Part shown: positions 4,797 through 27,170 of the stretch, piece after piece | How the letters are laid out: each line of letters starts with the position of its first letter | Numbering within the stretch: position 1 is the first letter of the stretch | NCBI GenBank assembly: GCA_029858245.1 | Contig: JAOUFL010000001.1 | Location: 1-34,357, forward strand | Direction of reading: 5' to 3' | Length of the DNA: 34,357 nt | Origin: Candidatus Zixiibacteriota bacterium | Lineage (GTDB): Bacteria > Zixibacteria > MSB-5A5 > RBG-16-43-9 | The notes under the pieces: model-generated | Told to the model about the DNA's origin: nothing | Seen by the model: the letters and a program-made list of their open reading frames with translations, nothing else | Databases searched by the model: none | Translations under genes and position numbers: made by a program

Positions 4797-5354
4797 ATGA
4801 AGCAGGAATTCAAAGGTAATCTGTTGAGTCCTTTGCCAATTGTTCTGGTTGGAGCATTGGTAAACAATCGTCCAAATTACCTTGTGATTGGATATATATG
4901 CCCTTTTGACTTTGGGAAATATATCTTCTTTAGTTTATATAAGAAGCGTTATACACGAATTGGAATTCACGAAAACAAGACCTTTAGCGTAAACATCCCC
5001 TCAGAGGCACTGCTCACTGAAACAAATCTCTGTGGAAGTAAATCTGGACGTAATTTTGACAAAGCGTCGCTCTTTGAAAATTTTTTCGGTGAACTTAAAA
5101 CCGCACCAATGATTCGCCAGTGTCCCATAAATTTAGAGTGTGAGGTGACTGAAGTCCTGGATTATGATCCAAACGAAGGTATCATCGGCAAAGTCATCAA
5201 ATCCTATGTAGATCAGGAATGTCTCACACAAGGAAAGCTTGACATGAGGAAAGTTCATCCATTGATCTGGGCAACAGGTGGGGATTTTAACTATTACCAA
5301 CTGGGGAAAAGAATCGCTCAAGAAGAAAGTAAAGAAGATACTGCAACAACATAA
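4797..5354 (+). CDS. Flavin reductase-like (FMN-binding split-barrel) family protein
   Basis: AAAGGAG RBS upstream. Pattern LPIVLVGA..NRPNYLVIGY...FSVNIP....CGSKSGRNFDK is typical of Flavin_Reduct domain proteins. Confidence 0.65.
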   Translation: MKQEFKGNLLSPLPIVLVGALVNNRPNYLVIGYICPFDFGKYIFFSLYKKRYTRIGIHENKTFSVNIPSEALLTETNLCGSKSGRNFDKASLFENFFGELKTAPMIRQCPINLECEVTEVLDYDPNEGIIGKVIKSYVDQECLTQGKLDMRKVHPLIWATGGDFNYYQLGKRIAQEESKEDTATT

Positions 5355-5450
5355 AACCACATTATGCCATTCTAATAAACAGTACTTTAGGGATTATTCC
5401 TGCCTCTGGGTAGAATAAAGAACTATCCAGGTGGTTTATTTTAATTAATT

Positions 5451-5888
5451 TTATGAAAGTTCTTTGCGGTAAAAGAACTTTCTTTTTACCTCCTTGTATC
5501 CCAGAGCCTTATGTGCTTTCGGGCTTAAAGGATAATCCGAGGTGGTATCAGAAGCCATTTCCCTGCATCCTAAATCCTTTGCCCATTTTTCTCCCTGTTC
5601 TACTAACTTCTTTCCCACACCCTGATTCCTGAATGCAGGTGCTATAAACCATCCCTCGATATACCCGATCCTGTTCGTTTCACATCCCGGGGCTTTATCC
5701 CGGATCGAGCATTCAATAAATCCTATAAGTTTCCCTGCATGTTTTGCTACAAATACTCTCCATTTTCTATCCTTGAGTATATCGTCAGCTTCTTCTCTGA
5801 GTCGAGCAGGTTCAGCTCTCGTCCACAACTGTGCGCGAAGAGAAATCCAGTTCGATTTATCCCTCTCAGCGATTTTCCTTATTCTCAT
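5451..5888 (-). CDS. GNAT N-acetyltransferase closely resembling aminoglycoside 6'-N-acetyltransferase type I (AAC(6')-Iy-like)
   Basis: Blocks LRAQLW, LIGFIECSIR, IEGWFIAPAFRNQGVGKKLV (acetyl-CoA Q/RxxGxG/A motif), GCREMASDT and HKALGYKEVKRKFFYRKE match my memory of AAC(6')-Iy. I prefer the ATG at 5888 (GGAG 9 nt upstream) over the TTG at 5903. Confidence 0.7.
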   Translation of the reverse strand: MRIRKIAERDKSNWISLRAQLWTRAEPARLREEADDILKDRKWRVFVAKHAGKLIGFIECSIRDKAPGCETNRIGYIEGWFIAPAFRNQGVGKKLVEQGEKWAKDLGCREMASDTTSDYPLSPKAHKALGYKEVKRKFFYRKELS

Positions 5889-7038: not shown

Positions 7039-8622
7039 TCATAATTGTTTTATCTTACCCTGTTTTCTGATACGCCAGCGCAGAAATCCGAACAGGACCA
7101 CGACTGCGGGTAAGCCCAGGATATTTGCGTATTTTATCAATTTCTTCTTACCCTCAGAGATTTCTTTAAGTGGGCGGGTGGTTACTTCCTTGGAACGTAT
7201 ATCGATAAGGTTTTCATCCTGGGAAAGCCAATCCACGATATTCATAAAGAAAACCAGATTGCTTTTCGATAAGCTCCGGTCTTTTAAGAAATCAGCATCA
7301 CCTATAACCACCAATCTGTTTTCCGGACTCTGGGTAAGGGTAGATTCCGGAATCTCAGACCAGACAGAATCCTCCCCTGCTTGTGGAATTCCAATATCTT
7401 TGTAGTGGCTTTTAAATCTCCCCTGAACCACTGCTCCCAGTATCAGATTCCCCTTGCTGAAATCTGCTTTATCGAATTTTCTAAAAGGATTAATATTATA
7501 GGGATATATCTGGCTTCCGCTGTTGGCAGAGGACATTACCAGAGGTATGAAAAGAAGGTTTCTTTTAGCAGCATAATTCGAATCAAGAGAGCTCACAAAT
7601 GAAAAATCCACGTTCTCCAATCCTTTAACAATTAAGTTCTCGCGGTTGAAAGCAGTAGCCACGGGGAAAAAAGGATAGTTCACTATATTGGAATAGGTCA
7701 TATGTCCGCTCTGTTGTCTGATAGTAATCCTGCTGCATTGCATATCCACAACCAGATCATCATTTACCTTTATACCATAACTTTCTAATAGATCATCTAA
7801 GTTCAAATCGAGCCTGTCCGCCTTTCCCGCCTCCAAGTCTATATCAGTCTTATCCAGAAAAATACCTAACTTGCCGCCCTTCATCACATACTGGTCAAGT
7901 GCATATTTCTCCAGCTCGGAGAAAGGTTTTTTAGGACCTACTATAAGCAGACAACTGATATCCGCAGGGACGGATTGTCTATCCAGCAGGTTAATACCTC
8001 TGGTAGTGTATTCTTTACTCAGGGCAGAGTTCAGGTAGGTTAGATCTTTTTCCAGGGCTGCCTCATCATGCCCGGTGAGAAAACCTATAACCGGAGTTGA
8101 ACTTGAAGAGATTTTTTTTATGGTTCGGCTAAATTCATATTCCAATCCTGACAGACTCTGTACTACCGGCAGAACTGCTTTTTTATTCTCATATAGAAAA
8201 ACCAACCCCATATAAACTTTCTTTATCTCCAGCTTATCCTGTTCCATCACATTCACCTGCATAGGTGGAATACCATACCCCTGTGCCTCCAGTTCCTTAT
8301 TTTCCTTAATGGGATCTATGAGCTCCAGTTTTAGATTTCCTTTGGCATAAGCTTTATATTCCTCAAGTTTATCTTTGATATAGCGGAAATTGGTATTGTA
8401 GGGTTGCGGTAAATCCTCGCTAAAATACATTTTTACAATAACTTTATCATCCAGGTTGCGGACGATATCCTTACTGGTTTTAGAAAGAGAGAAGACCCTT
8501 CCTCCGCTTAAATCTAGACGGGAGAAGAGATTTACCGAGATAAGATTAATAAGCAACAGTACAGCCAGAACTAAAAAGATGAGTGCTGTTGAACTCAATC
8601 CATATTTAAATCTTCTTTTCAA
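7039..8622 (-). CDS. gldG: GldG-like ABC-transporter auxiliary component (ABC-type uncharacterized transport system)
   Basis: 527 aa with N- and C-terminal TM anchors (LIFLVLAVLLLINLISV; LGLPAVVVLFGFL) around a large extracytoplasmic region. It follows the ABC-2 permease after a 4-nt gap. Confidence 0.65.
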   Translation of the reverse strand: MKRRFKYGLSSTALIFLVLAVLLLINLISVNLFSRLDLSGGRVFSLSKTSKDIVRNLDDKVIVKMYFSEDLPQPYNTNFRYIKDKLEEYKAYAKGNLKLELIDPIKENKELEAQGYGIPPMQVNVMEQDKLEIKKVYMGLVFLYENKKAVLPVVQSLSGLEYEFSRTIKKISSSSTPVIGFLTGHDEAALEKDLTYLNSALSKEYTTRGINLLDRQSVPADISCLLIVGPKKPFSELEKYALDQYVMKGGKLGIFLDKTDIDLEAGKADRLDLNLDDLLESYGIKVNDDLVVDMQCSRITIRQQSGHMTYSNIVNYPFFPVATAFNRENLIVKGLENVDFSFVSSLDSNYAAKRNLLFIPLVMSSANSGSQIYPYNINPFRKFDKADFSKGNLILGAVVQGRFKSHYKDIGIPQAGEDSVWSEIPESTLTQSPENRLVVIGDADFLKDRSLSKSNLVFFMNIVDWLSQDENLIDIRSKEVTTRPLKEISEGKKKLIKYANILGLPAVVVLFGFLRWRIRKQGKIKQL

Positions 8623-9355: not shown

Positions 9356-10288
9356 TTAGCTTCTGGTTAAAAGTCTAAAGATCTGCTCAAGTGATGCCTG
9401 TTCTCTTCTCATTTCCAGAATAGTCCAGTTATTCTGAACCGAGTAATTGAAAAGTTTTTCTCTCAAATCCACACCTTTGTCAGATTCGATATAAAAACCT
9501 CTGGTTTCTACTGAAGGTGTGGCAACTTTTTCCACTTTTTCCACCTGTTCTAACATTTTCAACTTACTCTCTATATTTTCAACTGTTTTTTTTAACTCCA
9601 GATAAATCCTCTCCTTCCCCTCAAATCCGCTCTGCAACTCCTTAGGGGTTCCATCAGCTACGATCTTTCCTTCATGAATTATCAATACCCTCCCACAGGT
9701 AGCTTCAACCTCCGGAAGTATATGCGTGGATAAAATAACCGTTTTTTCCCTTCCCAGCTGTTTTATCAGATTCCTTATCTCCACTATCTGGTTGGGATCA
9801 AGCCCGATGGTAGGCTCATCCAGAATAAGGATCTCCGGGTTATGTATCATCGCCTGGGCTAAACCGACTCTTTGCCTGAATCCTTTGGAAAGCTCCCCGA
9901 TATCCTTGTGCGTAACCGAACCCAAGCCGCAAAGGTCTATTATATCTTTCTTCCTCTGGCTGAAATTATCCTTACCCACACCCCGCAGACCCATGATGAA
10001 CTCCAGATATTCCACAACATTCATCTCCCAGTAAAGAGGAGCATTCTCAGGAAGGTAGCCTATTTTACCCCTGATCTCTAAGGAATTGTCAAAGATATTT
10101 AAATCATCCACTTCTACGGTTCCCGAGGTAGGCGGCATAAAACAGGTGATAATCCGCATGGTGGTTGTTTTGCCTGCTGCATTAGGACCAAGAAAACCAA
10201 CTATCTCTCCGGTTTTCACCTCAAAGGAGATATCATCAACTGCCTTTAACTCTCCATAATTTTTGGTAAGGTTTTTTACTCTAATCAT
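9356..10288 (-). CDS. gldA: ABC transporter ATP-binding protein, GldA-like
   Basis: Walker A GPNAAGKT, signature LSKGFRQR, Walker B ILILDEPT and H-loop STHIL, plus a C-terminal extension of about 90 aa. Confidence 0.85.
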   Translation of the reverse strand: MIRVKNLTKNYGELKAVDDISFEVKTGEIVGFLGPNAAGKTTTMRIITCFMPPTSGTVEVDDLNIFDNSLEIRGKIGYLPENAPLYWEMNVVEYLEFIMGLRGVGKDNFSQRKKDIIDLCGLGSVTHKDIGELSKGFRQRVGLAQAMIHNPEILILDEPTIGLDPNQIVEIRNLIKQLGREKTVILSTHILPEVEATCGRVLIIHEGKIVADGTPKELQSGFEGKERIYLELKKTVENIESKLKMLEQVEKVEKVATPSVETRGFYIESDKGVDLREKLFNYSVQNNWTILEMRREQASLEQIFRLLTRS

Positions 10289-17312: not shown

Positions 17313-17321
17313 TCCCGCTAT

Positions 17322-17387
17322 ATCGATAAATCCGTTGAATATATCACCCGTGAAAAGGGGAAAATCGATCAGGTGATTAATTATTAA
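17322..17387 (+). pseudogene. Remnant of the 3' end of a paralogous ABC-2 permease gene
   Basis: It translates to IDKSVEYITREKGKIDQVINY-stop, compared with the permease 2 C-terminus KSIEYIARKTGKIDQVITY-stop. The 23-nt run GGGGAAAATCGATCAGGTGATTA is identical to 16306-16328. No upstream ORF body exists. Confidence 0.7.
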
Positions 17388-17462
17388 ATCGTAGGGGCAA
17401 GGTTTCCTCGCCCTATGTGTGGTCAGGGCATTTATACAGCCTGTATATAACAATAGAAGATT

Positions 17463-17507
17463 GTAGGGGTTCATCCGCCTCAGGCGGATTATACCCCTAC
17501 TTTTTTT
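17463..17507 (+). terminator. Probable intrinsic terminator of the + strand exporter/hydrolase operon (also a repeat-family member)
   Basis: GTAGGGGT..ATCCGCC-TCA-GGCGGAT..ACCCCTAC (17463-17500) followed by T7 (17501-17507). Confidence 0.6.
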
Positions 17508-17610
17508 GGTGGAACAGACCACTGGTTTGTTCTGGACAGGCTGGAAGTCTGTCCCACCAAGTGGGTAGGGGCGACCTGGTGGGTCGCCTTCACAATCATC
17601 ATAGTGCGGC

Positions 17611-17683
17611 CCTGCTTGTCCCGAAGTAAGCGGGATCAGTCTCGCCAAAGTTAAATGGACAGAACCCGCTTGTGGTGGGTTCT
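17611..17683. repeat. Composite hairpin repeat, copy 2 (direct orientation, 2300 bp from copy 1)
   Basis: CCTGCTTGTCCCGAAGTAAGCGGGATCAG (17611-17639; 27/29 identical to 15311-15339), then GGACAGAACCCGC..GGGTTCT (17657-17683), matching 15353-15379 except in the loop. Confidence 0.8.
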
Positions 17684-17842
17684 ACCCGCCTGCAAGAAAA
17701 AAATGGAAGGCTAGCTCGGGCGGGAAATCCAATTCCCGCACGAACAGAAAATTTTGACCCTCTACCTTAACAGGTGGAACAGGCATCTTGCCTGTTCCCT
17801 TAACCCGGAGAATACGGGAGAGGACAAACCTCTCCCTTCCAC

Positions 17843-17889
17843 AAAAAAGTATACCCACGTTGAGGACAACGTGGGTATACTAATTTTTT
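17843..17889. terminator. Bidirectional intrinsic terminator (serves skp on the - strand)
   Basis: GTATACCCACGTT(17849-17861)/AACGTGGGTATAC(17868-17880) forms a perfect 13-bp stem, flanked by A6 (17843-17848) and T6 (17884-17889). Confidence 0.8.
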
Positions 17890-17908
17890 CACATAAGAAA
17901 ATTTACTT

Positions 17909-18436
17909 CTACTTGTTCAGTTGTGCCAGTATCTCATTGGTTATATCCATCTCCTCCTTAGCGTAGAGCACATCTCCACCGGAGGTATCCAGGATCAAGG
18001 AGTAGCCATCTCTTATTGCTACCAGTTGAATAACTGCATTGATTTTATCAATCAGAGGTTTGGAAAGTTCCCGTTCCCTTCTGGCTGCCTCCCCTTCAGG
18101 TCCCAGGATATTGGTAGCGAACTCCTGATACTCCTTTTGCTTGAGGATAATAAGTTGCTGTTTTTCCTGTCTTTTAGCCTCAGTAAGAAGTGAGGATTGT
18201 CTATCTAAATCCTCCTGTAAAACTTTTATCTGATTTAAGAGTGTATCTGCATGACTCTGCCATTTAGTCAACTGCCGGTTGAACTTCTCCTGAGCATCCT
18301 TGAAATCTTTGAACTCGTTTTTAAGCCTTTCCACATCCACATATCCAATCTTAAGCTGCTGGGCTGGAATCGCTCTGGCTGAAAACACCATCCCTAATAG
18401 CAGAAACCCCAGAACACATGCTACCTTTCTTGACAT
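17909..18436 (-). CDS. skp: OmpH/Skp family periplasmic chaperone
   Basis: AAGGAGG RBS and a signal peptide (VLGFLLLGMVFSARA). It begins KIGYVD and has a long Gln/Glu/Lys-rich coiled-coil core. A size of 175 aa is typical of the family. Confidence 0.8.
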   Translation of the reverse strand: MSRKVACVLGFLLLGMVFSARAIPAQQLKIGYVDVERLKNEFKDFKDAQEKFNRQLTKWQSHADTLLNQIKVLQEDLDRQSSLLTEAKRQEKQQLIILKQKEYQEFATNILGPEGEAARRERELSKPLIDKINAVIQLVAIRDGYSLILDTSGGDVLYAKEEMDITNEILAQLNK

Positions 18437-18478
18437 CTTAATCCTCCTTTATAGCTAATATATATAATCAAATTCAAT

Positions 18479-19132
18479 TCACAAGAAAAGTTTTTTTAAT
18501 GTTTTTTTACCTTCCTTACCCACCAGGGTTATTATGGTATCTTTCTCCCTGAGAATGGTATCTCCCTTAGGGATTATTACCTTACTTTCCCTTAAGGCTG
18601 CTATAATTATACAATCCTGAGGCAGACTTAGTTTGGAGATTTTCTTGTTCACCAGGGGAGAATCTGAAGATAGCTGGGTTTGGAAGATCTCCACTTCCCC
18701 TCCCCGCAGGGCTAAAAGCGGTATGAACATTCCTGCATCGATTTTCTCCTCGATCAGAGAACCGATGATTCGGGTGGCTGAAACTGTTGCATCCACCCCC
18801 AGACTCTGAAAGATCTCTTCATTCTTAGGGTCATTTACACGGGCAATGGTTTTGGGAATAAGATAAAGAATTTTTGCCATCTGACAGATGATCAGATTAT
18901 CCTGATCTGTCCCGGTCACTGCTACCAGGACATCAGCCCGGTTGACACCCATATCCATCAAAGTATCAAGCTCAGTCCCGTCTCCCAGGATAACCTGTTC
19001 CCCCCATTCCTCAGACAGCTTATTATATCTCTGCTGGTCTTTTTCAACTATCAGGACTTCATGTTTCTCCGACATAAGCAGCCGCGCCAGACTATAACCC
19101 ACCTGGCCACCACCTACAATGATTACATACAT
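18479..19132 (-). CDS. RCK protein, TrkA-N + TrkA-C domains (KtrA/TrkA-like K+ transport regulatory subunit)
   Basis: The N-terminal Rossmann motif MYVIIVGGGQVG (GxGxxG), the E at the end of the second strand, and a C-terminal TrkA-C-like segment (SPLVNKKISKLSLPQDCIIIAALR). SD AAGGAGAAGG upstream. Confidence 0.85.
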   Translation of the reverse strand: MYVIIVGGGQVGYSLARLLMSEKHEVLIVEKDQQRYNKLSEEWGEQVILGDGTELDTLMDMGVNRADVLVAVTGTDQDNLIICQMAKILYLIPKTIARVNDPKNEEIFQSLGVDATVSATRIIGSLIEEKIDAGMFIPLLALRGGEVEIFQTQLSSDSPLVNKKISKLSLPQDCIIIAALRESKVIIPKGDTILREKDTIITLVGKEGKKTLKKLFL

Positions 19133-19149
19133 TTTCCTTCTCCTTAAGA

Positions 19150-19554
19150 TTATGCTTTATCTGATAAAAACTCCTCAATTTTTTTAGCGGAATCTATGGT
19201 TGGGCAGATAATATTCAAACCCAGTTCCTTAAATGTCTGAGCCCTTTTGGAACCATAAACTCTCAATAATATCCTGGAGATTTTATATTTTTCCCTTACC
19301 AGTTGTACAGCCATGAGATTGGTATTATCGTCATTGGTTACAGCTATGAAAGCGTCTGCTTGTTCGATTCCAGCTTTTATTAAGGCCTCCTCATCTATCC
19401 CTATGCCGGAGATGGTTTTTCCGGTAAATTCTTTATCCAGTCTTTTAAAAGAACCTGGGTCCTGATCTATGACCGAAACCTCATCCCCTTTTGAAACAAG
19501 TTGAGAGGCAACTAGTGCGCCTACTCTACTGCATCCTAAAATAACTACCTTCAT
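19150..19554 (-). CDS. RCK N-domain-only protein (TrkA-N, NAD-binding)
   Basis: MKVVILGCSRVG Rossmann start and no TrkA-C domain. I prefer the ATG at 19554 (GAGGAGAGGAAGT immediately upstream) over the TTG at 19569. Confidence 0.8.
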   Translation of the reverse strand: MKVVILGCSRVGALVASQLVSKGDEVSVIDQDPGSFKRLDKEFTGKTISGIGIDEEALIKAGIEQADAFIAVTNDDNTNLMAVQLVREKYKISRILLRVYGSKRAQTFKELGLNIICPTIDSAKKIEEFLSDKA

Positions 19555-19575
19555 ACTTCCTCTCCTCAAAAAAGA

Positions 19576-20142
19576 TTAACCTTCCTCAGGCAGTTTGTCA
19601 ATAATAACCTCACAGGGTGCTTTTCTCAGTAAGGTATCAGTTGTTCTTCCCCACAGAGATTGAACACCACGTAGGCTGGTTCGCATTCCCAGAACAATAA
19701 CATCCGCCTGGTTATCCTTAGCTGCTCGTATTATCCCCTCACCTGCTTCTCTGGCTTTCTCGATTAGAAGAACTGGAGGCAGATGGTGAAGTTCTACGAT
19801 TTCTTTCCCCCGATTTAAAGCCTGATTCGCTTTTTCCTCTGCTTCAGGCATAGGAGCATCCAGGGGCATAGTACGGGGTATCTCTATCACATATGTTAAT
19901 ACAATCTCGGCTTGATGTTCGGCACCTAACCGGCATGCTAATTCTATCCCCCTTTCAGAATAGGGCTTTCCTGAGGTTGGTACCAAAATCCTTTTCAATG
20001 TCTCAACCGACCTGCGAGCCCTTGCTACTTCTGGCTTTATCTGAGGCGGAGGATGGAGCATCCACCATAAAATTCCACCCATGCTAATGGTGAAAATTAT
20101 AGCGATTATCACTCCTAATAACGATACCTGAACCTGGGTCAT
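19576..20142 (-). CDS. Membrane-anchored universal stress protein (UspA family)
   Basis: An N-terminal TM helix (LLGVIIAIIFTISMGGILWWML) followed by a Usp fold (RILVPTSG...; C-terminal ADVIVLGMRT..G....GRTTDTLLRKAPCEVIII). The start overlaps the upstream stop as ATGA. Confidence 0.75.
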   Translation of the reverse strand: MTQVQVSLLGVIIAIIFTISMGGILWWMLHPPPQIKPEVARARRSVETLKRILVPTSGKPYSERGIELACRLGAEHQAEIVLTYVIEIPRTMPLDAPMPEAEEKANQALNRGKEIVELHHLPPVLLIEKAREAGEGIIRAAKDNQADVIVLGMRTSLRGVQSLWGRTTDTLLRKAPCEVIIDKLPEEG

Positions 20143-20360
20143 TTTCTTCTTTTCCTTAGATATTTATATACAAATCTCAAGCGGTAGATTCCAATAAATA
20201 AAAAACCTCCTCCAATTAAAAGAGTGAGGATATAAAATCCAGTGAAAAAAGAACGAATAAGGATCACCCCTCCCAAGATGGTCATTAAAACGCTGGTTAT
20301 TATCTGATAATAATCCAGGCGGGTCAGGTGATCTGGCATGTCAACCATATGCTTTCTCAT
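20139..20360 (-). CDS. Small two-TM membrane protein, translationally coupled on both sides
   Basis: 73 aa with two hydrophobic helices and a basic tail (YLRKRRK). ATGA overlaps at 20357-20360 and 20139-20142. Confidence 0.6.
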   Translation of the reverse strand: MRKHMVDMPDHLTRLDYYQIITSVLMTILGGVILIRSFFTGFYILTLLIGGGFLFIGIYRLRFVYKYLRKRRK

Positions 20361-21934
20361 TTCAAATCCACCCTCTTCTTATCCCTTTCTGCTAAGGCAT
20401 TTTTATACTGCTCTAATAAATCGAATTCCTCAGCTGAGGATAACACCTCCATCTGCTGTTTTTCCCAATTATGTTCGATGCTTTTGAAAATGGGAAACTT
20501 TTGTGATTTTCGATACCAAACGTAATAACAGAAGCATAAGATAACCCAGGCCGGTCCGGCAATTCGTCCAATGCTGTGGGTCAAAACCACCATGAACAGT
20601 ATGGTGCCCACTCCCAGGGTTCCGATTACCCCTAAAACCGGGAATAGAACTTTTCTCCCTTTGTATTTCAGTTTGATATTCAAAGGCATCTTATAGGGTC
20701 TTGGAGTCCAGGGCTCGGAAAACCTTAGCCTGATCAGGGCTATGAATACCAGGGTATAACCTAAAGTAGCCCCAAAGGCATACATATTAGCCAGGGTATC
20801 CATAGCAGATGGAGTGAGGAAGGATAAGACTGTCTCAATTAACCCGATTCCGGAAAAGACCAGGATGGTACGAATGGGGGTCTTGTATTTAGGATGAACA
20901 GCATCAAACCACGAACTGATGATTCCGAACTTGCTGAGATAATAGGTTAACCTGGAGGAGCCTACTATGCCTGTGTTGGAGGAGATAAAAAGTATCAGTG
21001 CTCCTAAAGCCGCAGCAAATGGTCCGGCGATCAAGCCAACGAATGGAATGGCTTCAGCCAAAACTGCAATCGGATTGTCGATATTTTCGGCGAACACCTG
21101 CCAGGGTAAAATCCCCAGGCCTAAGGTGGAGAACGCCACAGCAAAGATGAACACCGTGAAGATCAAGGTAATGGAGGTACGGGGTATGACCGTAGCCGGT
21201 CGTCTGGTCTCCTGTGCCACCTCGGAGATCGATTCCAAACCCACAAAGGATATTATGGCAATGGAGGAGCCATACATAAAATTATGCAAAGAGGGAAACT
21301 GGGTGCTCCATTGATAAGCCAAAAGCTCAGGGTTCCAGGCAAATAGGAAAGCCAGGATGACAAGGGCTGATTCGGTAGCAATCACCACCGCTCCTATGAC
21401 CTCATTTACAAATGAAGATTCCCTTATTCCCCTGATATTAAGCCAGATCAAAAACCCTATTAGGATAAGTGTCTCCGCACACCAGACCGGATTGATGTTG
21501 TGAAAAGGACCAATAGTTGTGACGAATGAACTGATCTCCCGACCTATAACAAAAGGCATAAAGAAATTAAGATACCCGGCAGAAGCAGTAGCGAAAAGTG
21601 CGATGTCTATGGTGTAGTCTAAGATCAAAGCAGATCCAGCCACAAATCCCCAGAAATCGCCTAAGCCGCGCAGGGTAAAGTAGGACCCCCCGCCTGCCAC
21701 CGGATAAGAGGAGGCAAGTTCAGTATAGGCTAATCCGATCATTATATAGACGATACCAGCTAAGGCGAAAACCAGACTGGTTGCACCCTGGGCATAAGCC
21801 ATCACCAAGCCTAAAGCAACGTATGTATCCGCACCCACATCCGCAAATCCCCACATATAGGAGCCCCAGACCGAGACATCCCTCCTCAGCTCTGATTTTC
21901 CCTGGCCTATAGACTCTTTAATCTTCTCTCTCAT
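20357..21934 (-). CDS. APC-superfamily permease, paralog A (KimA-like candidate K+ or amino-acid transporter)
   Basis: 525 aa with about 12 TM helices and AA_permease_2-like blocks (YPVAGGGSYF, LILDYTIDIALF). A 52-aa run is identical to paralog B (WGSYMWGF...AYTELAS). Conserved cytosolic tail EEFDLLEQYKNALAERDKK. No SD before the ATG. Confidence 0.85.
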   Translation of the reverse strand: MREKIKESIGQGKSELRRDVSVWGSYMWGFADVGADTYVALGLVMAYAQGATSLVFALAGIVYIMIGLAYTELASSYPVAGGGSYFTLRGLGDFWGFVAGSALILDYTIDIALFATASAGYLNFFMPFVIGREISSFVTTIGPFHNINPVWCAETLILIGFLIWLNIRGIRESSFVNEVIGAVVIATESALVILAFLFAWNPELLAYQWSTQFPSLHNFMYGSSIAIISFVGLESISEVAQETRRPATVIPRTSITLIFTVFIFAVAFSTLGLGILPWQVFAENIDNPIAVLAEAIPFVGLIAGPFAAALGALILFISSNTGIVGSSRLTYYLSKFGIISSWFDAVHPKYKTPIRTILVFSGIGLIETVLSFLTPSAMDTLANMYAFGATLGYTLVFIALIRLRFSEPWTPRPYKMPLNIKLKYKGRKVLFPVLGVIGTLGVGTILFMVVLTHSIGRIAGPAWVILCFCYYVWYRKSQKFPIFKSIEHNWEKQQMEVLSSAEEFDLLEQYKNALAERDKKRVDLK

Positions 21935-21963
21935 GTCGGATTATTGTGAATCAGAACCTAAAC

Positions 21964-22023
21964 AAAAAATCGCCTTAAAAACGACTCCTCCAGCTCCCCA
22001 ACATCGGCAGGGGGTTAGGCGAC
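21964..22023 (-). promoter_or_regulatory. Internally deleted remnant of the c-di-AMP riboswitch; folds as a hairpin plus U6
   Basis: The minus strand reads GUCGCCUAACCCCCUGCCGAUGUUGGGGAGCUGGAGGAGUCGUUUUUAAGGCGAUUUUUU. The first ~45 nt align with the intact copy at 23952-23908, and the core blocks are missing. Confidence 0.6.
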
Positions 22024-22036
22024 TTATTAAAAATTG

Positions 22037-22064
22037 AATATATCGAGTGGGAGAAGATTGTCAA
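22037..22064 (-). promoter_or_regulatory. Putative promoter of paralog A (duplicate of the paralog B promoter)
   Basis: Minus strand: TTGACA (22064-22059), 16 nt, TATATT (22042-22037). Same boxes and spacing as 23992-23965. Confidence 0.55.
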
Positions 22065-22092
22065 TACAAAAAAATACTTACTGATTAATCTG

Positions 22093-22125
22093 AAAAAAAA
22101 GACTTGTTGAATTCACTGGTGAATT
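22093..22125 (-). terminator. Weak terminator-like signal after paralog B
   Basis: An AT-rich 6-bp stem (22110-22115/22120-22125), with the U8 tract (plus-strand A8 at 22093-22100) 9 nt away. Poor geometry. Confidence 0.2.
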
Positions 22126-22140
22126 GGATTAAAGCTTTCC

Positions 22141-23715
22141 TCACTTTCTCCTTTTCTTATCTCTTTCAGTTAGAGCATTTTTATACTGTTCTAATAAATC
22201 ATATTCCTCAGCCGAAGTTAAAACCTCAATCTGCTCTTTCTCCCAGTCATGTTTTATACTCTTAAAAACAGGTAAACCCTCTTTTTTTCTATACCAAGCA
22301 TAATATATAAAACAGAGCAGAATCCAGGCAGGTCCGGCTATCCGCCCTATGGTATGAGTGAGAACTACCATAAAAAGAATAGTGGAAACTCCAAGCATAC
22401 CGATTACCCCCAGCACCGGGAAGTCGACTTTTCTTCCCTTATACCCTATTTTTAAATTTAAAGGCATCTTATAGGGTCTGGGGGTGTAAGGGTCTGAAAA
22501 TCTAAGCTTTATCAAAGCAACAAAGACCAGAGTATATCCTAAGGTAGCGCCAAAGGCATACATATTCCCCAGGGTGCCCATGGCTGAAGGAGTAAGAAAA
22601 GATAGAACAGTTTCGATTATCCCTATGAAAGAGAAAATAACAATTGTCCGCATAGGGGTTCTGAATTTCGAATGAATCATATTAAACCATTTGCTTATTA
22701 TGCCAAATCCGCTCAAGGAGTAGGTAAGTCTTGAAGCACCCATCACGCCGGTATTAGCGGAGATGAAAAGTATTAGTGCACCTAAAGCAGCGGCAAAAGG
22801 ACCTGCCATAAATCCAATTATAGGAATAGCCTTAGCTAATATAGCTATGGGATTATCCATATGTTCGGCAAACTCCTGCCAGGGTAAAACACCTAAGCCC
22901 AGGGTGGAGAAGGCAACTGCAAAGATAAAAACTGTAAAGATCAAGGTCAAAGAGGTACGAGGTATAATAGTTGCTGGTCTTCTGGTCTCCTGAGCCGCCT
23001 GGGAGATTGATTCCAATCCAACAAAGGAGATAATAGCCAGGGAGGAACCATACATAAAATTATGAAAGGAGGGGAACTGAGTTTTCCATTGATGGGCTAA
23101 GAGCTCCGGCCTCCAGGCAAAGAGAAATCCCATTATAACCAAGGCAGATTCTGTGATTATCACTATCGCCCCGATCACTTCATTCAGAAAAGAAGATTCT
23201 TTTATGCCCCGAACGTTAATTAATATCAAAAGCGAAATTAAAACCAAGGTCTCTATACACCAGAAGTAGTTGACATTATGCAGTGGCCCGACGGATATAA
23301 CAAAACTATCTATGCTTATTCCTAAGATGTAAGGCATAAAGAAGTTCAGATAGCCGGCTGAGGCAGTTGCAAAAAGGGCAATGTCTATGGTGTAATCTAA
23401 AAGTAATGCAGAACCACCCATAAACCCCCAGAAATCACCTAAGCCACGTAGGGTAAAGTATGGTCCTCCTCCAGCCACAGGATAGGCTGAGGCAAGCTCG
23501 GTATAAGCTAATCCGATCATTATATAGACGATACCGGCGAGGGCAAAGACCAGACTGGTTGCACCCTGTGCATAAGCCATTACCAGACCTAGGGCGACAT
23601 AGGTATCCGCACCCACATCCGCAAACCCCCACATATACGAGCCCCAGATTGTAACATCCCTTCTGAGTTCGTTTTTACCGTCCACTGGTGCAATGTTCTG
23701 GTTATTCTTCTCCAT
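22141..23715 (-). CDS. APC-superfamily permease, paralog B (KimA-like candidate), riboswitch-controlled
   Basis: Same architecture as paralog A. I prefer the ATG at 23715 (GGAGG at 23727-23723, 7 nt upstream) over the track start at 23745, whose first codons contain that SD. Confidence 0.85.
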   Translation of the reverse strand: MEKNNQNIAPVDGKNELRRDVTIWGSYMWGFADVGADTYVALGLVMAYAQGATSLVFALAGIVYIMIGLAYTELASAYPVAGGGPYFTLRGLGDFWGFMGGSALLLDYTIDIALFATASAGYLNFFMPYILGISIDSFVISVGPLHNVNYFWCIETLVLISLLILINVRGIKESSFLNEVIGAIVIITESALVIMGFLFAWRPELLAHQWKTQFPSFHNFMYGSSLAIISFVGLESISQAAQETRRPATIIPRTSLTLIFTVFIFAVAFSTLGLGVLPWQEFAEHMDNPIAILAKAIPIIGFMAGPFAAALGALILFISANTGVMGASRLTYSLSGFGIISKWFNMIHSKFRTPMRTIVIFSFIGIIETVLSFLTPSAMGTLGNMYAFGATLGYTLVFVALIKLRFSDPYTPRPYKMPLNLKIGYKGRKVDFPVLGVIGMLGVSTILFMVVLTHTIGRIAGPAWILLCFIYYAWYRKKEGLPVFKSIKHDWEKEQIEVLTSAEEYDLLEQYKNALTERDKKRRK

Positions 23716-23775
23716 AGGCAGACCTCCTTCCTGCTTTTTTGACATTAAAGATTTTGGAAAGGGGGGTACTAAAAT

Positions 23776-23805
23776 AAAAAAAGACCAGAGGAAACCTCTT
23801 GGTCT
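23776..23805 (-). terminator. Intrinsic terminator forming the riboswitch expression platform
   Basis: Minus strand: AGACCAAGAGG-UUU-CCUCUGGUCU (10 bp, one bulged A) followed by U7. Confidence 0.8.
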
Positions 23806-23829
23806 AAAAGATTTTTTAGTTCCTCTCTC

Positions 23830-23952
23830 CTTACGCCTACGAAGTTAGCTGACGGGCTCGGGTCAAGAGATAACCCTATTCGCCTCTGGCGAAATTCGCC
23901 CCAATTACTTGGGTCCTCCGTCTCCCCGCCTTCGGCGGGGGGTTAGGCGATT
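23830..23952 (-). promoter_or_regulatory. ydaO-yuaA (kimA/ktrA leader) class c-di-AMP riboswitch aptamer
   Basis: The minus strand contains AAUCGCCUAA, CCCCGCC-GAA-GGCGGGG, GGAGGACCCA, UGGGGCGAAU and GACCCGAGCCCGUCAGCUAACUUCGUAGGCGU. P1 is CGCCUA (23949-23944) / UAGGCG (23839-23834). Confidence 0.8.
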
Positions 23953-23964
23953 TATTAAAAATTT

Positions 23965-23992
23965 AATATAAATATTAAAAAAGAATTGTCAA
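23965..23992 (-). promoter_or_regulatory. Putative promoter of the riboswitch-led transcript
   Basis: Minus strand: TTGACA (23992-23987), 16 nt, TATATT (23970-23965). Confidence 0.55.
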
Positions 23993-24176: not shown

Positions 24177-24234
24177 AATTTTTTGAGATACACCAAAGAG
24201 ACTTCGTTTTGGTTTTTCAAGATTGGAGGTTTAT

Positions 24235-25893
24235 ATGGAATATGCCCCGATAAAAGCTCCCAGAGGAATAGATTTATCCTGCAAGGGCTGGCATCAGGAA
24301 GCAGCATTGAGGATGTTACAGAATAACTTAGATGAAGAAGTAGCTGAAAAACCTCAGGAGCTGATAATTTATGGAGGAAGCGGCAAAGCCGCTCGAAACT
24401 GGGAATGTTATTATGCTATTGTGGAGGCTTTAAAGAATTTAGAAAATGACCAGACTCTTCTGGTTCAATCCGGCAAACCAGTGGGTATTTTCAAAACCTA
24501 CTCCTATGCCCCTCGTGTATTAATCTCCAATTCAATGATGGTTCCTGCCTGGGCAAACTGGGAGAAATTCAGGGAACTGGAAAGATTAGGCTTGATTATG
24601 TTCGGGCAGATGACTGCAGGGTCCTGGATTTATATAGGGACACAGGGAATTCTGCAGGGGACTTATGAGACCTTTGCCTCTGCTGCGAAAAAGCATTTCA
24701 ACGGAGATCTGAAGGGAAAATTCATCCTGACCGGTGGTATGGGAGGAATGGGTGGAGCTCAGCCCCTGGCTGTGACTATGAACGGTGGAGTAGTTTTGTG
24801 TGTGGAGGTGGATAAAAAAAGGATAGAGAGGAGACTCTCTAAGGGATATTGCAATAAAATGGTGGAAAGCCTGGACGAGGCGCTGGATATGGTTCTGAAA
24901 GCCAAGAACAAAGGCAAAGCCATCTCAGTGGGTTTAGTGGCAAACTGTGCGGATACCCATCCGGAGATATTAAAAAGAGGGATAATCCCGGATATAGTCA
25001 CTGACCAGACCAGTGCGCATGACGAGCTGAACGGGTATGTTCCAGCAGGTATCCCCTATGAGGAAGCTTTGAGATTGAGAAATGAAAACCCGGATGACTA
25101 TATCCAGAGGTCGATGGAGTCAATTGCCAGACATGTTGAGGCGATGTTAGGCTTTTTGAAAGCCGGTTCTGTGGTATTCGATTACGGCAATAACATAAGG
25201 GGTCAGGCAAAAAAGGCAGGATTGGAGAATGCCTTTGATTTTCCTGGCTTTGTCCCGGCTTATATCAGACCCTTGTTCTGCCAGGGCAAAGGTCCTTTCA
25301 GATGGGCAGCCCTGTCTGGTGACCCGGAGGATATAAGGATAACGGATAAAGTAGTCTTAAGGGAGTTCAAGCAGGATGAGCCTCTGTGCAGGTGGATAAA
25401 GTTAGCCTCTAAAAAAGTCCAGTTCCAGGGACTTCCTGCAAGAATCTGCTGGCTTGGTTATGGAGAAAGAGCGCATTTCGGGGATATAATAAACTCAATG
25501 GTTAGAAGAGGTAGGATAAAAGCGCCGGTGGTAATCGGCAGAGACCATTTAGACTGCGGTTCAGTTGCCTCCCCTTACAGGGAAACCGAGGGAATGAAAG
25601 ATGGCTCAGACGTGATAGCAGACTGGCCCATCCTGAACGGGCTTTTGAATGCAGTCTCCGGTGCCTCCTGGGTCTCAGTGCATCACGGAGGCGGAGTAGG
25701 GATTGGAAATTCCATCCACGCGGGAATGGTCATCGTAGCAGATGGAACAAAGGATATGAAGCTGAGGCTGGAAAGGGTCTTGACCAACGACCCGGGCACG
25801 GGTGTTGCGCGACACGCAGATGCCGGATATGAGGAGGCAATTAAAGTGGCAAAGGAAAAGGGAGTAAAGATACCGATGTTGAGAGAAAAGTAA
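24235..25893 (+). CDS. hutU: Urocanate hydratase
   Basis: Length of about 552 aa. Hallmark [16 protein letters not shown]-binding block, [16 protein letters not shown] and [13 protein letters not shown] prefer the ATG at 24235 (GGAGG at 24225-24229) over the TTG at 24223. Confidence 0.95.
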
Positions 25894-25910
25894 GAAGTGA
25901 GACGTAAGAC

Positions 25911-27170
25911 GTGAAACGAATTACTTTATTGCTCAAAAACGCCAGACAGCTTTTGACTTTATCCTCTGACAAAAAAGCTCCCCGCAGGAGTAGGGAGATG
26001 GAGGAACTGGGACTGATTGAGGATGGGGCAGTTGCGGTCTCCGGAAAAAAGATTGTAGCTGTTGGGAAAACTAAAGATGTTCTTGCAAAGGTCAAAATAG
26101 ACCGCAAGACAAAAATCATAAATTCCGAAGACAAAGTCGTTCTTCCTGGCTTTGTGGACTGCCACACCCATCCGATTTTCGGAGCTACCAGGGAGGAGGA
26201 GTTTGAATTAAGGGTAAAAGGTAAAACCTACGAGGAGATCGCAAAAGCCGGTGGTGGTATAAGGTCAAGTGTACGGTCTTTGCGAGAGTTATCTAAGGCG
26301 GAATTGATAGAATTAGCTCTGCCCCGTTTGGATAGATTTTTATCCTTCGGCACCACCACGATTGAGGCAAAATCAGGTTACGGTCTTTCTCTGAAAGACG
26401 AGATAAAAATTCTGGAAGTAATCAAAAAGTTAGACCAGATACACCCGCTGGACTTGATTCCGACTTTCCTGGGTGCACACGAAATCCCGGATGAGTATAT
26501 AGATAAAAGAGAAGAATATATTGATTTTTTGATAAACCAGATGATTCCTGAAGTTGCTAAAAGAAAATTAGCTCTTTTCTGCGATGTATTCTGCGAGAAA
26601 AATGTCTTCAGCCTGGAGGAATCTAAAAAGATAATGGAGACAGCTAAAAGATATGGATTGAAGCCAAGACTTCACGCCGACCAGTTAAGCTCTTTGGGTG
26701 GTGCAGAATTGGCTGGAGAAGTTGGTGCCATCTCAGCAGACCATCTGGAATATATCTCCGATTCGGGTATTGAGAAGATGAAAGAGTGTGGAACGATTGC
26801 AGTTCTATTACCCGGTTCAGTTTTTGGATTGGGTAAAGATAATTACCCTCCGGCACGTAAAATGATTAATAAGGGATTACCCGTGGCATTAGCCACAGAT
26901 TTCAATCCCGGCAGCTCTTTTACCGAATCGATGCCGATTATTTTGAGCTTAGCCTGTTTGAAAATGAAGCTTACCCCGGCAGAAGCCATAACCGCAGCTA
27001 CTGTTAATTCCGCCTATGCCATAGACAGAGGAGATTCGATCGGCAGTTTAGAAAAAGGTAAAAAGGCAGATATGGTTATCTGGGATATCAAAAATTACAA
27101 GGAGATTCCCTATCATTACGGAGTCAACCTGGTTGATAAGGTCATCAAAAACGGAGAGATGATAAGATGA
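25911..27170 (+). CDS. hutI: Imidazolonepropionase
   Basis: Amidohydrolase metal ligands VDCHTHP, KSGYGL, HADQL and ATDFNPGS. GTG start; the N-terminal LLLKNARQLLT matches the conserved HutI N-terminus. Confidence 0.9.
   Translation: MKRITLLLKNARQLLTLSSDKKAPRRSREMEELGLIEDGAVAVSGKKIVAVGKTKDVLAKVKIDRKTKIINSEDKVVLPGFVDCHTHPIFGATREEEFELRVKGKTYEEIAKAGGGIRSSVRSLRELSKAELIELALPRLDRFLSFGTTTIEAKSGYGLSLKDEIKILEVIKKLDQIHPLDLIPTFLGAHEIPDEYIDKREEYIDFLINQMIPEVAKRKLALFCDVFCEKNVFSLEESKKIMETAKRYGLKPRLHADQLSSLGGAELAGEVGAISADHLEYISDSGIEKMKECGTIAVLLPGSVFGLGKDNYPPARKMINKGLPVALATDFNPGSSFTESMPIILSLACLKMKLTPAEAITAATVNSAYAIDRGDSIGSLEKGKKADMVIWDIKNYKEIPYHYGVNLVDKVIKNGEMIR

Follow-up and report, generated by a model that had tools for sequence, protein, structure and literature searches.

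An APC permease, Usp and TrkA gene module behind a c-di-AMP riboswitch in Zixibacteria, a candidate regulated cation importer

In the textbook picture, RCK/TrkA rings regulate TrkH/KtrB channels and CPA2 antiporters. We analyzed a contig of Candidatus Zixiibacteriota bacterium (assembly GCA_029858245.1, contig JAOUFL010000001.1; the whole stretch of 34,357 nucleotides (nt) is called the window below), in which two RCK genes lie in a cluster of six minus-strand genes (18479-23745) that also encodes two APC-family permeases, a small transmembrane (TM) protein and a membrane-anchored Usp protein. A two-subunit octameric ring of this kind has been solved for TM1088A/B of Thermotoga maritima (PDB 3L4B), where its partner is the TrkH protein TM1089 (PMC4380455). 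The N-only subunit of ~140 residues and the N+C subunit of ~218 residues are encoded there by adjacent genes, and the window pair is alike, with 134 and 217 residues. However, while TM1088A/B adjoin TM1089, the window pair adjoins an APC permease, the small TM protein and Usp, and no TrkH. We propose, with a probability of about one in two, that the cluster encodes an APC-type cation importer, probably for K+, that is repressed by cyclic di-AMP (c-di-AMP) and regulated by its RCK and Usp proteins.

Several other described systems share features with this locus. The K+ systems KtrAB/KtrCD, KdpD-Usp and KhtTU/CpeAB, which are known to be under c-di-AMP control, use the same regulatory parts as the window (riboswitch, RCK_C, Usp), but their transport subunits differ from its APC permease. 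KimA and Kup, K+/H+ symporters of the KUP family that c-di-AMP regulates, share with the window permeases the LeuT/APC fold and an RNA-level control by c-di-AMP (kimA lies behind a ydaO riboswitch), yet they consist of 12 TM helices and a large C-terminal cytoplasmic domain, whereas the window permeases have 14 TM helices and no fused cytoplasmic domain. GkApcT and the CAT (SLC7) cationic amino-acid transporters share the 14-TM CAT-like topology but, unlike the window permeases, have no partner Usp or RCK genes. In the APC permeases with a fused Usp domain (an architecture in PMC3673472), which are the nearest relatives outside the family, the permease is paired with Usp as it is here, although the window encodes Usp separately, with a TM anchor of its own. 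In the literature searched we found no description of a module of APC, Usp and TrkA proteins, no functional study of APC-Usp fusions and no mention of their link to a TrkA pair. All parts of the module come from known families; their combination appears to be undescribed.

To follow the module through other genomes, permease B was used for a scan of one genome per species, which gave 46 loci, and the window proteins were then placed in these by tblastn. Counts refer to the 26 unbiased permease-anchored loci, drawn from about ten phyla, that have no less than 3.5 kb of DNA downstream. Usp was detected by tblastn in 25 of the 26, the remaining locus (L042) having a weak Pfam Usp match, and the N+C RCK protein (RCK_NC) was present in 19/26. 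The usual order, on one strand, is permease, small TM protein, Usp, TrkA_N and TrkA_N+C, and in many loci a small TM open reading frame (ORF) stands at the place of the 73-residue gene of the window. Groups with the module include Zixibacteria, Nitrospiria, Firestonebacteria, Thermodesulfobacteriota, Elusimicrobiota, a deltaproteobacterial metagenome-assembled genome, Acidobacteriota and Clostridia, among others. Because order and strand are kept across phyla while the flanking genes are unrelated between lineages (Pfam-annotated contexts), we regard it as highly probable that the module is a real functional unit, and one functional system, rather than a chance neighborhood. Two Acidobacteriota loci have the trio of Usp, RCK_N (the N-lobe-only RCK protein) and RCK_NC 2-4 kb off and on the opposite strand, with no other transporter adjoining. 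In one otherwise standard module (L052) a DinB_2-family gene (5067-5531) is inserted between Usp and TrkA_N.

The RCK_NC proteins were also followed on their own. Four homologues (72, 64, 57 and 53% identity), chosen regardless of their neighbors, all lie inside the module (4/4). This RCK_NC clade is dedicated to the module, and TrkH/KtrB is therefore not its usual partner. The initial annotation of this DNA would have been given up had ktrB or trkH emerged as the usual genomic partner with no co-conservation of APC and RCK genes; the neighborhood survey of APC, Usp and TrkA_N that it had called for instead finds the set conserved over about ten phyla.

Actinobacteria have a version of the module with fused parts. 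When the permease profile was run against 1.84 billion cluster representatives, 181 of them matched at E up to 1e-30. Just beyond the permease family stand proteins of 610-820 residues, several with C-terminal Usp domains, and these neighbors include archaeal and actinobacterial permease-Usp fusions with the TM1 motif [GA]YG[DN]VGSS. In three of four sampled Thermoleophilia genomes the genes run APC-Usp, small protein (44-84 residues), APC-Usp, TrkA_N and TrkA_N+C, so that the small TM ORF stands between the two permeases. L058 and L060 have this order with a small protein of 73 residues, and in L060 the genes overlap. In L061 (10191-11303) the TrkA_N-only and TrkA_N+C genes are themselves fused, giving a 370-residue N-N-C protein that is intermediate between a two-subunit ring and the single-chain N-C-N-C TrkA; this fusion supports an association of the two RCK subunits. 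The window and actinobacterial permeases are 29% identical, and the profiles of the two families align with 100% probability (E 2e-80, 460 columns). The window Usp matches the fused C-terminal domain in L060 (E 1e-12 to 1e-14; 30-32% identity), and identity to the L060 counterparts is ~40% for the RCK proteins (40% for TrkA_N).

The fusion of two different pairs of parts, together with their co-travel at such a distance, argues strongly on comparative grounds that permease, Usp and RCK proteins act as one complex. The possible regulation in trans by Usp and RCK, as suggested in the initial annotation, gains support from these gene fusions as far as association is concerned. As a separate observation, the second permease paralogue of the actinobacterial modules (8123-10072 in L060) has a degenerate TM1, with VYTMSVSS instead of AYGNVGSS, which hints at a heteromer of a catalytic and a non-catalytic subunit. 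In the window, by contrast, both paralogues retain the TM1 motif FADVGAD.

In the window itself all six genes are on the minus strand. Permease A (22141-23745; 534 residues; Pfam and NCBIfam) and permease B (20357-21934; 525 residues; Pfam) are 79% identical 14-TM proteins, both well above the Pfam gathering cut-off for AA_permease_2 (122 and 131 bits vs 27), and permease B ends in the conserved cytoplasmic tail SAEEFDLLEQYKNALAERDKK. The 73-residue two-TM protein (20139-20360) consists of two hydrophobic helices with a weak DUF308 match below the Pfam cut-off (E 0.001), and its gene overlaps each neighbor by 4 nt; these are the ATGA overlaps at 20357-20360 and 20139-20142, which follow from the ORF coordinates. 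Usp (19576-20142; 188 residues; Pfam Usp 3e-21 and alignment) has an N-terminal TM helix with a conserved WWM, followed by a Usp domain with a degenerate ATP motif. RCK_N, a TrkA_N protein by Pfam, has the nucleotide-loop motif G-C-S-R-V-G in place of GxGxxG; its ORF spans 19150-19569, and the start is most likely the ATG at 19554, which has a GAGGAG ribosome-binding site ahead of it and gives 134 residues (19150-19554). RCK_NC (18479-19132; 217 residues; TrkA_N and TrkA_C by Pfam) has the motif G-G-G-Q-V-G.

This agrees with the six domain assignments and the two overlaps given initially. The tight packing also described there, with gaps of 6-21 nt, applies to Usp and RCK_N (21 nt) and to RCK_N and RCK_NC (17 nt) and does not extend to the two permeases, which are separated by 206 nt (21935-22140). 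That no TrkH/KtrB gene is encoded beside the module was borne out for the window by tblastn with a TrkH query and by Pfam on most ORFs of at least 100 residues. The best homologue matches of the window are in Zixibacteria (89-92% identity), and a scan of NCBIfam found no curated model for the permease clade, Usp or the small protein.

Upstream of permease A lies a c-di-AMP riboswitch aptamer of the ydaO/yuaA class (RF00379; 23818-23959, minus strand), which the Rfam covariance model matches over positions 1-134 of 134 with 98 bits (gathering score 38; E 3e-22). No other Rfam family reaches gathering level in the entire window. The aptamer is preceded by a promoter-like site, TTGACA-16-TATATT (23965-23992, minus strand), which agrees with 11/12 consensus positions and is a consensus match only. 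It is followed by an intrinsic-terminator-like hairpin, AGACCAAGAGG-TTT-CCTCTGGTC with a T-run (~23775-23805, minus strand; sequence and folding), which would be the expression platform and which ends 30 nt before the permease A start codon. The leader folds far more strongly than shuffled sequence (z = -4.4). From the order of aptamer and terminator, and from published members of the class, we infer that the leader would act as an OFF switch. The initial annotation had invoked the riboswitch class only as a theme; a complete aptamer is present upstream.

The spacer between the permeases repeats part of this leader. A second copy of the promoter-like TTGACA-16-TATATT, with the hexamers at the same spacing, was located by repeat alignment (22037-22064, minus strand) and is followed by ~65 nt of the aptamer 5' part (21964-22030, minus strand; aligned to the intact aptamer), after which the alignment stops. 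We reject a functional second riboswitch in the spacer, which gives no Rfam match at E up to 10 and folds about as strongly as shuffles (z = +0.2). In L010, a related Zixibacteria contig, an intact c-di-AMP riboswitch stands before each of two permease paralogues (7747-7913 and 9742-9882), likely the ancestral state of the arrangement in the window. Because L010 keeps two intact copies, the decayed 5' fragment in the spacer is read as a relic of duplication: to judge from the alignments, the window carries a tandem duplication of the permease gene with its promoter and part of the riboswitch, in which the second riboswitch has decayed. Elsewhere, a riboswitch precedes the permease in 12 Zixibacteria loci, which are all the riboswitch-bearing ones scanned with upstream DNA, and one Thermodesulfobacteriota locus has it as well. 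The other lineages scanned lack it, including the RBG-1-type Zixibacteria locus L047 and Actinobacteria.

What kind of permease is placed under this leader? The initial annotation called both proteins KimA-like, an identity that we reject. Compared with solved structures, the permease profile matches GkApcT at E 5e-27 (98 bits), eukaryotic CAT transporters at ~1e-24 and KimA at 7.5e-6 (28 bits). E. coli Kup is not matched, and Pfam finds no K_trans domain in the permeases. Two further hydrophobic helices follow the PRPYK motif, and then a tail of ~45 residues. Because KimA stands far down the profile list, and because of the two extra helices and the 45-residue tail, the label KimA-like is wrong at the family level, and the permeases are assigned to the CAT/GkApcT-like branch of the APC family. 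Two related statements were accurate: the permeases have no long cytoplasmic domain, and their C-terminal tail is truly conserved, the alignment showing SAEE[FY]DLLEQYK..L.ERD kept across phyla.

The K+ and H+ site residues of KimA are D36, Y43, T121, Y377 and E233. KimA D117/Y118, E233 and Y377 correspond to D106/Y107, E234 and Y385 of the window permease (TM3, TM6 and TM10), E233 being the proton-coupling residue, and D110 occupies the place of the KimA K+ ligand T121. The TM8 motif ANTG is common to the window permease and KimA and is not found in GkApcT. GkApcT E115 and D237 have their counterparts in D106 and E234. In TM1, F-A-D-V-G-A-D, like its form [GA]-Y-G-[DN]-V-G-S-S in the fused relatives, resembles Y-G-D-I-G-T-S around the essential D23 of Kup, a likeness at the motif level whose register no alignment method confirmed. 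A BLAST alignment of TM1 to KimA was unreliable and was not used, and the equation of D32 with KimA D36 rests on motif resemblance only.

In LeuT-fold transporters, an Asp in place of the TM1 Gly marks carboxylate-free substrates, for example in monoamine transporters. The profile alignment places D32, A35 and D36 of the window permease at I40, T43 and G44 of GkApcT, so that G[ST]G becomes G34-A35-D36. D32 is invariant in 17/17 aligned sequences, which span many phyla; at position 36, 15/17 have Asp and 2/17 have Asn. In GkApcT the backbone amides of T43 and G44 hold the substrate carboxylate, and the I40 carbonyl contacts the amino group (PMC5803215). Because the carboxylate-binding G[ST]G is replaced by D-V-G-A-D, the changed site argues, by analogy, for a substrate that would have no carboxylate. 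D110, Y385, E234 and the shared ANTG motif lean in the same direction.

The RCK proteins of the window have solved relatives. RCK_NC matches Vibrio TrkA (4g65/4j9u) at E 5e-44 and TM1088B (3l4b_C) over its full length at E 1e-35; its match to the N-only TM1088A covers the N lobe. With adjacent, homologous genes for a TrkA_N-only and a TrkA_N+TrkA_C protein, the window pair fits the TM1088A/B design.

The identity of the parts, the presence of the riboswitch, the conserved gene set and the fusions between genes are established here. For physical assembly, gating, transport direction and substrate we infer the following scheme. High c-di-AMP, as a signal of sufficient K+ and osmolyte, would act through riboswitch and terminator to halt transcription of permease A and read-through into the downstream genes. 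Because the riboswitch copy of the duplicated promoter has decayed, permease B and the four accessory genes would probably have a basal, c-di-AMP-independent expression from the internal promoter. The permease would work together with the membrane-held Usp domain, the small two-TM protein and the cytoplasmic RCK_N/RCK_NC ring. By sensing nucleotides or ions, this ring would control gating of the permease, whose conserved C-terminal tail is the likely docking site. The substrate would most likely be K+, or another small carboxylate-free cation, taken up at low c-di-AMP. That the module serves K+/osmotic homeostasis appears likely to us; that K+ itself is the substrate we put forward tentatively.

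A number of observations weigh against a K+ importer under c-di-AMP control. The closest solved or curated relatives of the permeases are amino-acid transporters (GkApcT and CAT, with TIGR00909 and BcaP below their cut-offs); KimA is matched only remotely (28 bits), and E. coli Kup does not match the permease family profile (hhalign probability 0.3). The actinobacterial clade often has Asn at the TM1 Asp and Ser at the D36 position, and since D36N in KimA abolishes K+ uptake, the argument from an acidic site fails for the clade as a whole. An AlphaFold2 model from a 12-sequence alignment was too poor (pLDDT, the predicted local distance difference test, 40), and no structural claim is drawn from it. 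Six lineages keep permease and Usp without RCK genes (L021, L022, L024, L026, L038 and L039; Armatimonadota, Chloroflexota, a Nitrospirota and one unclassified metagenome-assembled genome), so the RCK ring is not obligatory. The riboswitch is confined to two lineages among those scanned, and c-di-AMP riboswitches are also known to govern amino-acid and osmolyte transporters (PMC10117811). Finally, the c-di-AMP signature of RCK_C domains, (I/L)(I/L)-x2-D-x-R-x5-N-(I/L)(I/L) (cited in PMC10117811), does not fit the window sequence I-I-I-A-A-L-R-E-S-K-V-I-I-P, in which I-I and R are present, D is replaced by A and N by I.

This last point may not be decisive. In the alignment, the D and the N of the signature are missing from the RCK_C domain of PDB 4YS2 (S. 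aureus) too. Since this domain (CpaA) binds c-di-AMP, a failing signature may not exclude binding. The ATP motif of UspFG-type proteins, G-x2-G-x9-G-[ST], does not fit the window Usp either, which reads G-M-R-T-x9-G-R-T with only the first Gly invariant in the alignment. Because the RCK_C signature is unmatched and the Usp motif is degenerate, c-di-AMP sensing at the protein level, by RCK_C or Usp, finds no support in the sequence.

The main rival to the proposed cation importer is that the same regulators control a carrier for an amine, a polyamine or an amino acid. On this view the permeases would take up an amino acid, a polyamine or some organic osmolyte, and Usp and RCK would do no more than couple uptake to K+, energy or c-di-AMP state. 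This has several points in its favor: the automatic 'APA/APC family' labels, the nearest structural and profile relatives discussed above, and the retention of the GkApcT E115/D237 equivalents together with the TM6 G-x-E motif. For the regulators there are partial precedents, as c-di-AMP riboswitches occur upstream of amino-acid transporters (PMC10117811) and the Usp protein TeaD, to go by an entry in the reference list of PMC3673472, regulates an osmolyte transporter. The genes hutU and hutI, which divergently adjoin the operon in the window, would suit an amino-acid substrate, but these neighbors are not conserved at other loci. The change of G[ST]G to G-A-D in TM1, with an invariant Asp two residues upstream, suits a carboxylate-free substrate better than an amino acid, although a polyamine or another amine would still fit. 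Nor did we find, in the literature searched, a precedent for a TrkA_N-type ring dedicated to an amino-acid carrier. We consider this rival rather unlikely.

Is the RCK pair instead an ordinary TrkA ring for a TrkH/KtrB encoded elsewhere, with adjacency arising only from osmotic co-regulation? The closest solved homologues, TM1088A/B and TrkA, gate TrkH, and the absence of TrkH reported above covers the window, not the remaining Zixibacteria genome. Moreover, in L025 (3-2009) and L055 (606-2639), which represent one Thermodesulfobacteriota/deltaproteobacterial lineage, TrkH together with a KtrA-like TrkA_N+C gene immediately precedes the module on the same strand. However, the KtrA-like gene stands between TrkH and the module, and because TrkH there has its own KtrA-like gene, the ring of the module is not the ring of this TrkH. 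At all other related loci no TrkH was found within 6-10 kb. The sampled RCK_NC clade members were all in the module, and the pairing of RCK and permease persists at 29% permease identity in Actinobacteria. We consider an ordinary TrkH ring improbable.

A further connection to K+ was found in L059 (5001-11173), where two APC-Usp fusion genes enclose genes for a DUF4118-HisKA-HATPase kinase and for an OmpR-type response regulator. In architecture the kinase corresponds to the C-terminal half of KdpD, so that the pair looks like this half together with KdpE. The links of the module to K+ and c-di-AMP, namely the riboswitch, the TrkA-type ring, the upstream TrkH-KtrA genes and the KdpD/E-like pair, are real but circumstantial.

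Lastly, a cation exporter or cation/proton antiporter of the KhtTU or CpaA kind can be set aside as very improbable: RCK proteins do also regulate the K+/H+ antiporters KefC, KhtTU and CpeAB, and direction is unreadable from sequence, but the RCK-regulated exporters KhtTU and CpeAB are activated by c-di-AMP (PMC10117811), whereas a riboswitch followed by a terminator would shut the genes at high c-di-AMP, which is importer logic, and the fold and relatives of the permease are typically symporters or exchangers that take solutes up.

The surroundings of the operon complete the description of the locus. A Skp/OmpH chaperone gene (17909-18436, minus strand) begins 42 nt past RCK_NC and has its own promoter-like site (18457-18484). 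Because the same neighbor recurs only in the closest relative, L015, it is probably outside the module. Between this gene and a YdjM-like gene lie ~600 nt (17313-17908) with no convincing ORF and no Rfam match, and at the end of this gap a perfect 15-bp palindrome flanked by T-runs (17848-17881) has the look of a bidirectional terminator. On the other side of the operon, the divergent genes at 24223-27170 (plus strand) are read from sequence and position as hutU (urocanate hydratase) and hutI (imidazolonepropionase); they are transcribed away from the riboswitch promoter region.

If the cation importer proposed here is real, a ring dedicated to an APC-fold carrier and working with Usp would pair regulator and transporter in a new way. 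The module may represent a widespread and so far unrecognized class of K+ (cation) uptake system, with a 14-TM APC-fold pore, a TrkA-type ring and a tethered or fused Usp, reaching from Zixibacteria to Actinobacteria and topped in some lineages by a c-di-AMP riboswitch; this generalization we consider somewhat less likely than not. An APC-type pore could then explain 'orphan' TrkA proteins where TrkH/KtrB is lacking. Streptomyces venezuelae encodes six RCK_C proteins but neither TrkH nor KtrB (PMC10117811), and the 'Trk system' of M. tuberculosis is described as two TrkA proteins only (PMC4553272). M. tuberculosis ceoB/ceoC with the neighboring Rv2690c, a putative APC-type protein, may be a further instance of the same kind of system; because the wording of one paper ('trkA-C ... 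Rv2690') may instead place TrkA_C domains in Rv2690c, it was not used as evidence. Many genomes annotate TrkA without a matching pore, and a conserved alternative partner would make this puzzle testable. Automatic labels such as 'basic amino acid/polyamine antiporter' and 'Trk system protein TrkA' mask what would be one coherent system, and the module is a candidate addition to the c-di-AMP regulon in little-studied Gram-negative phyla.

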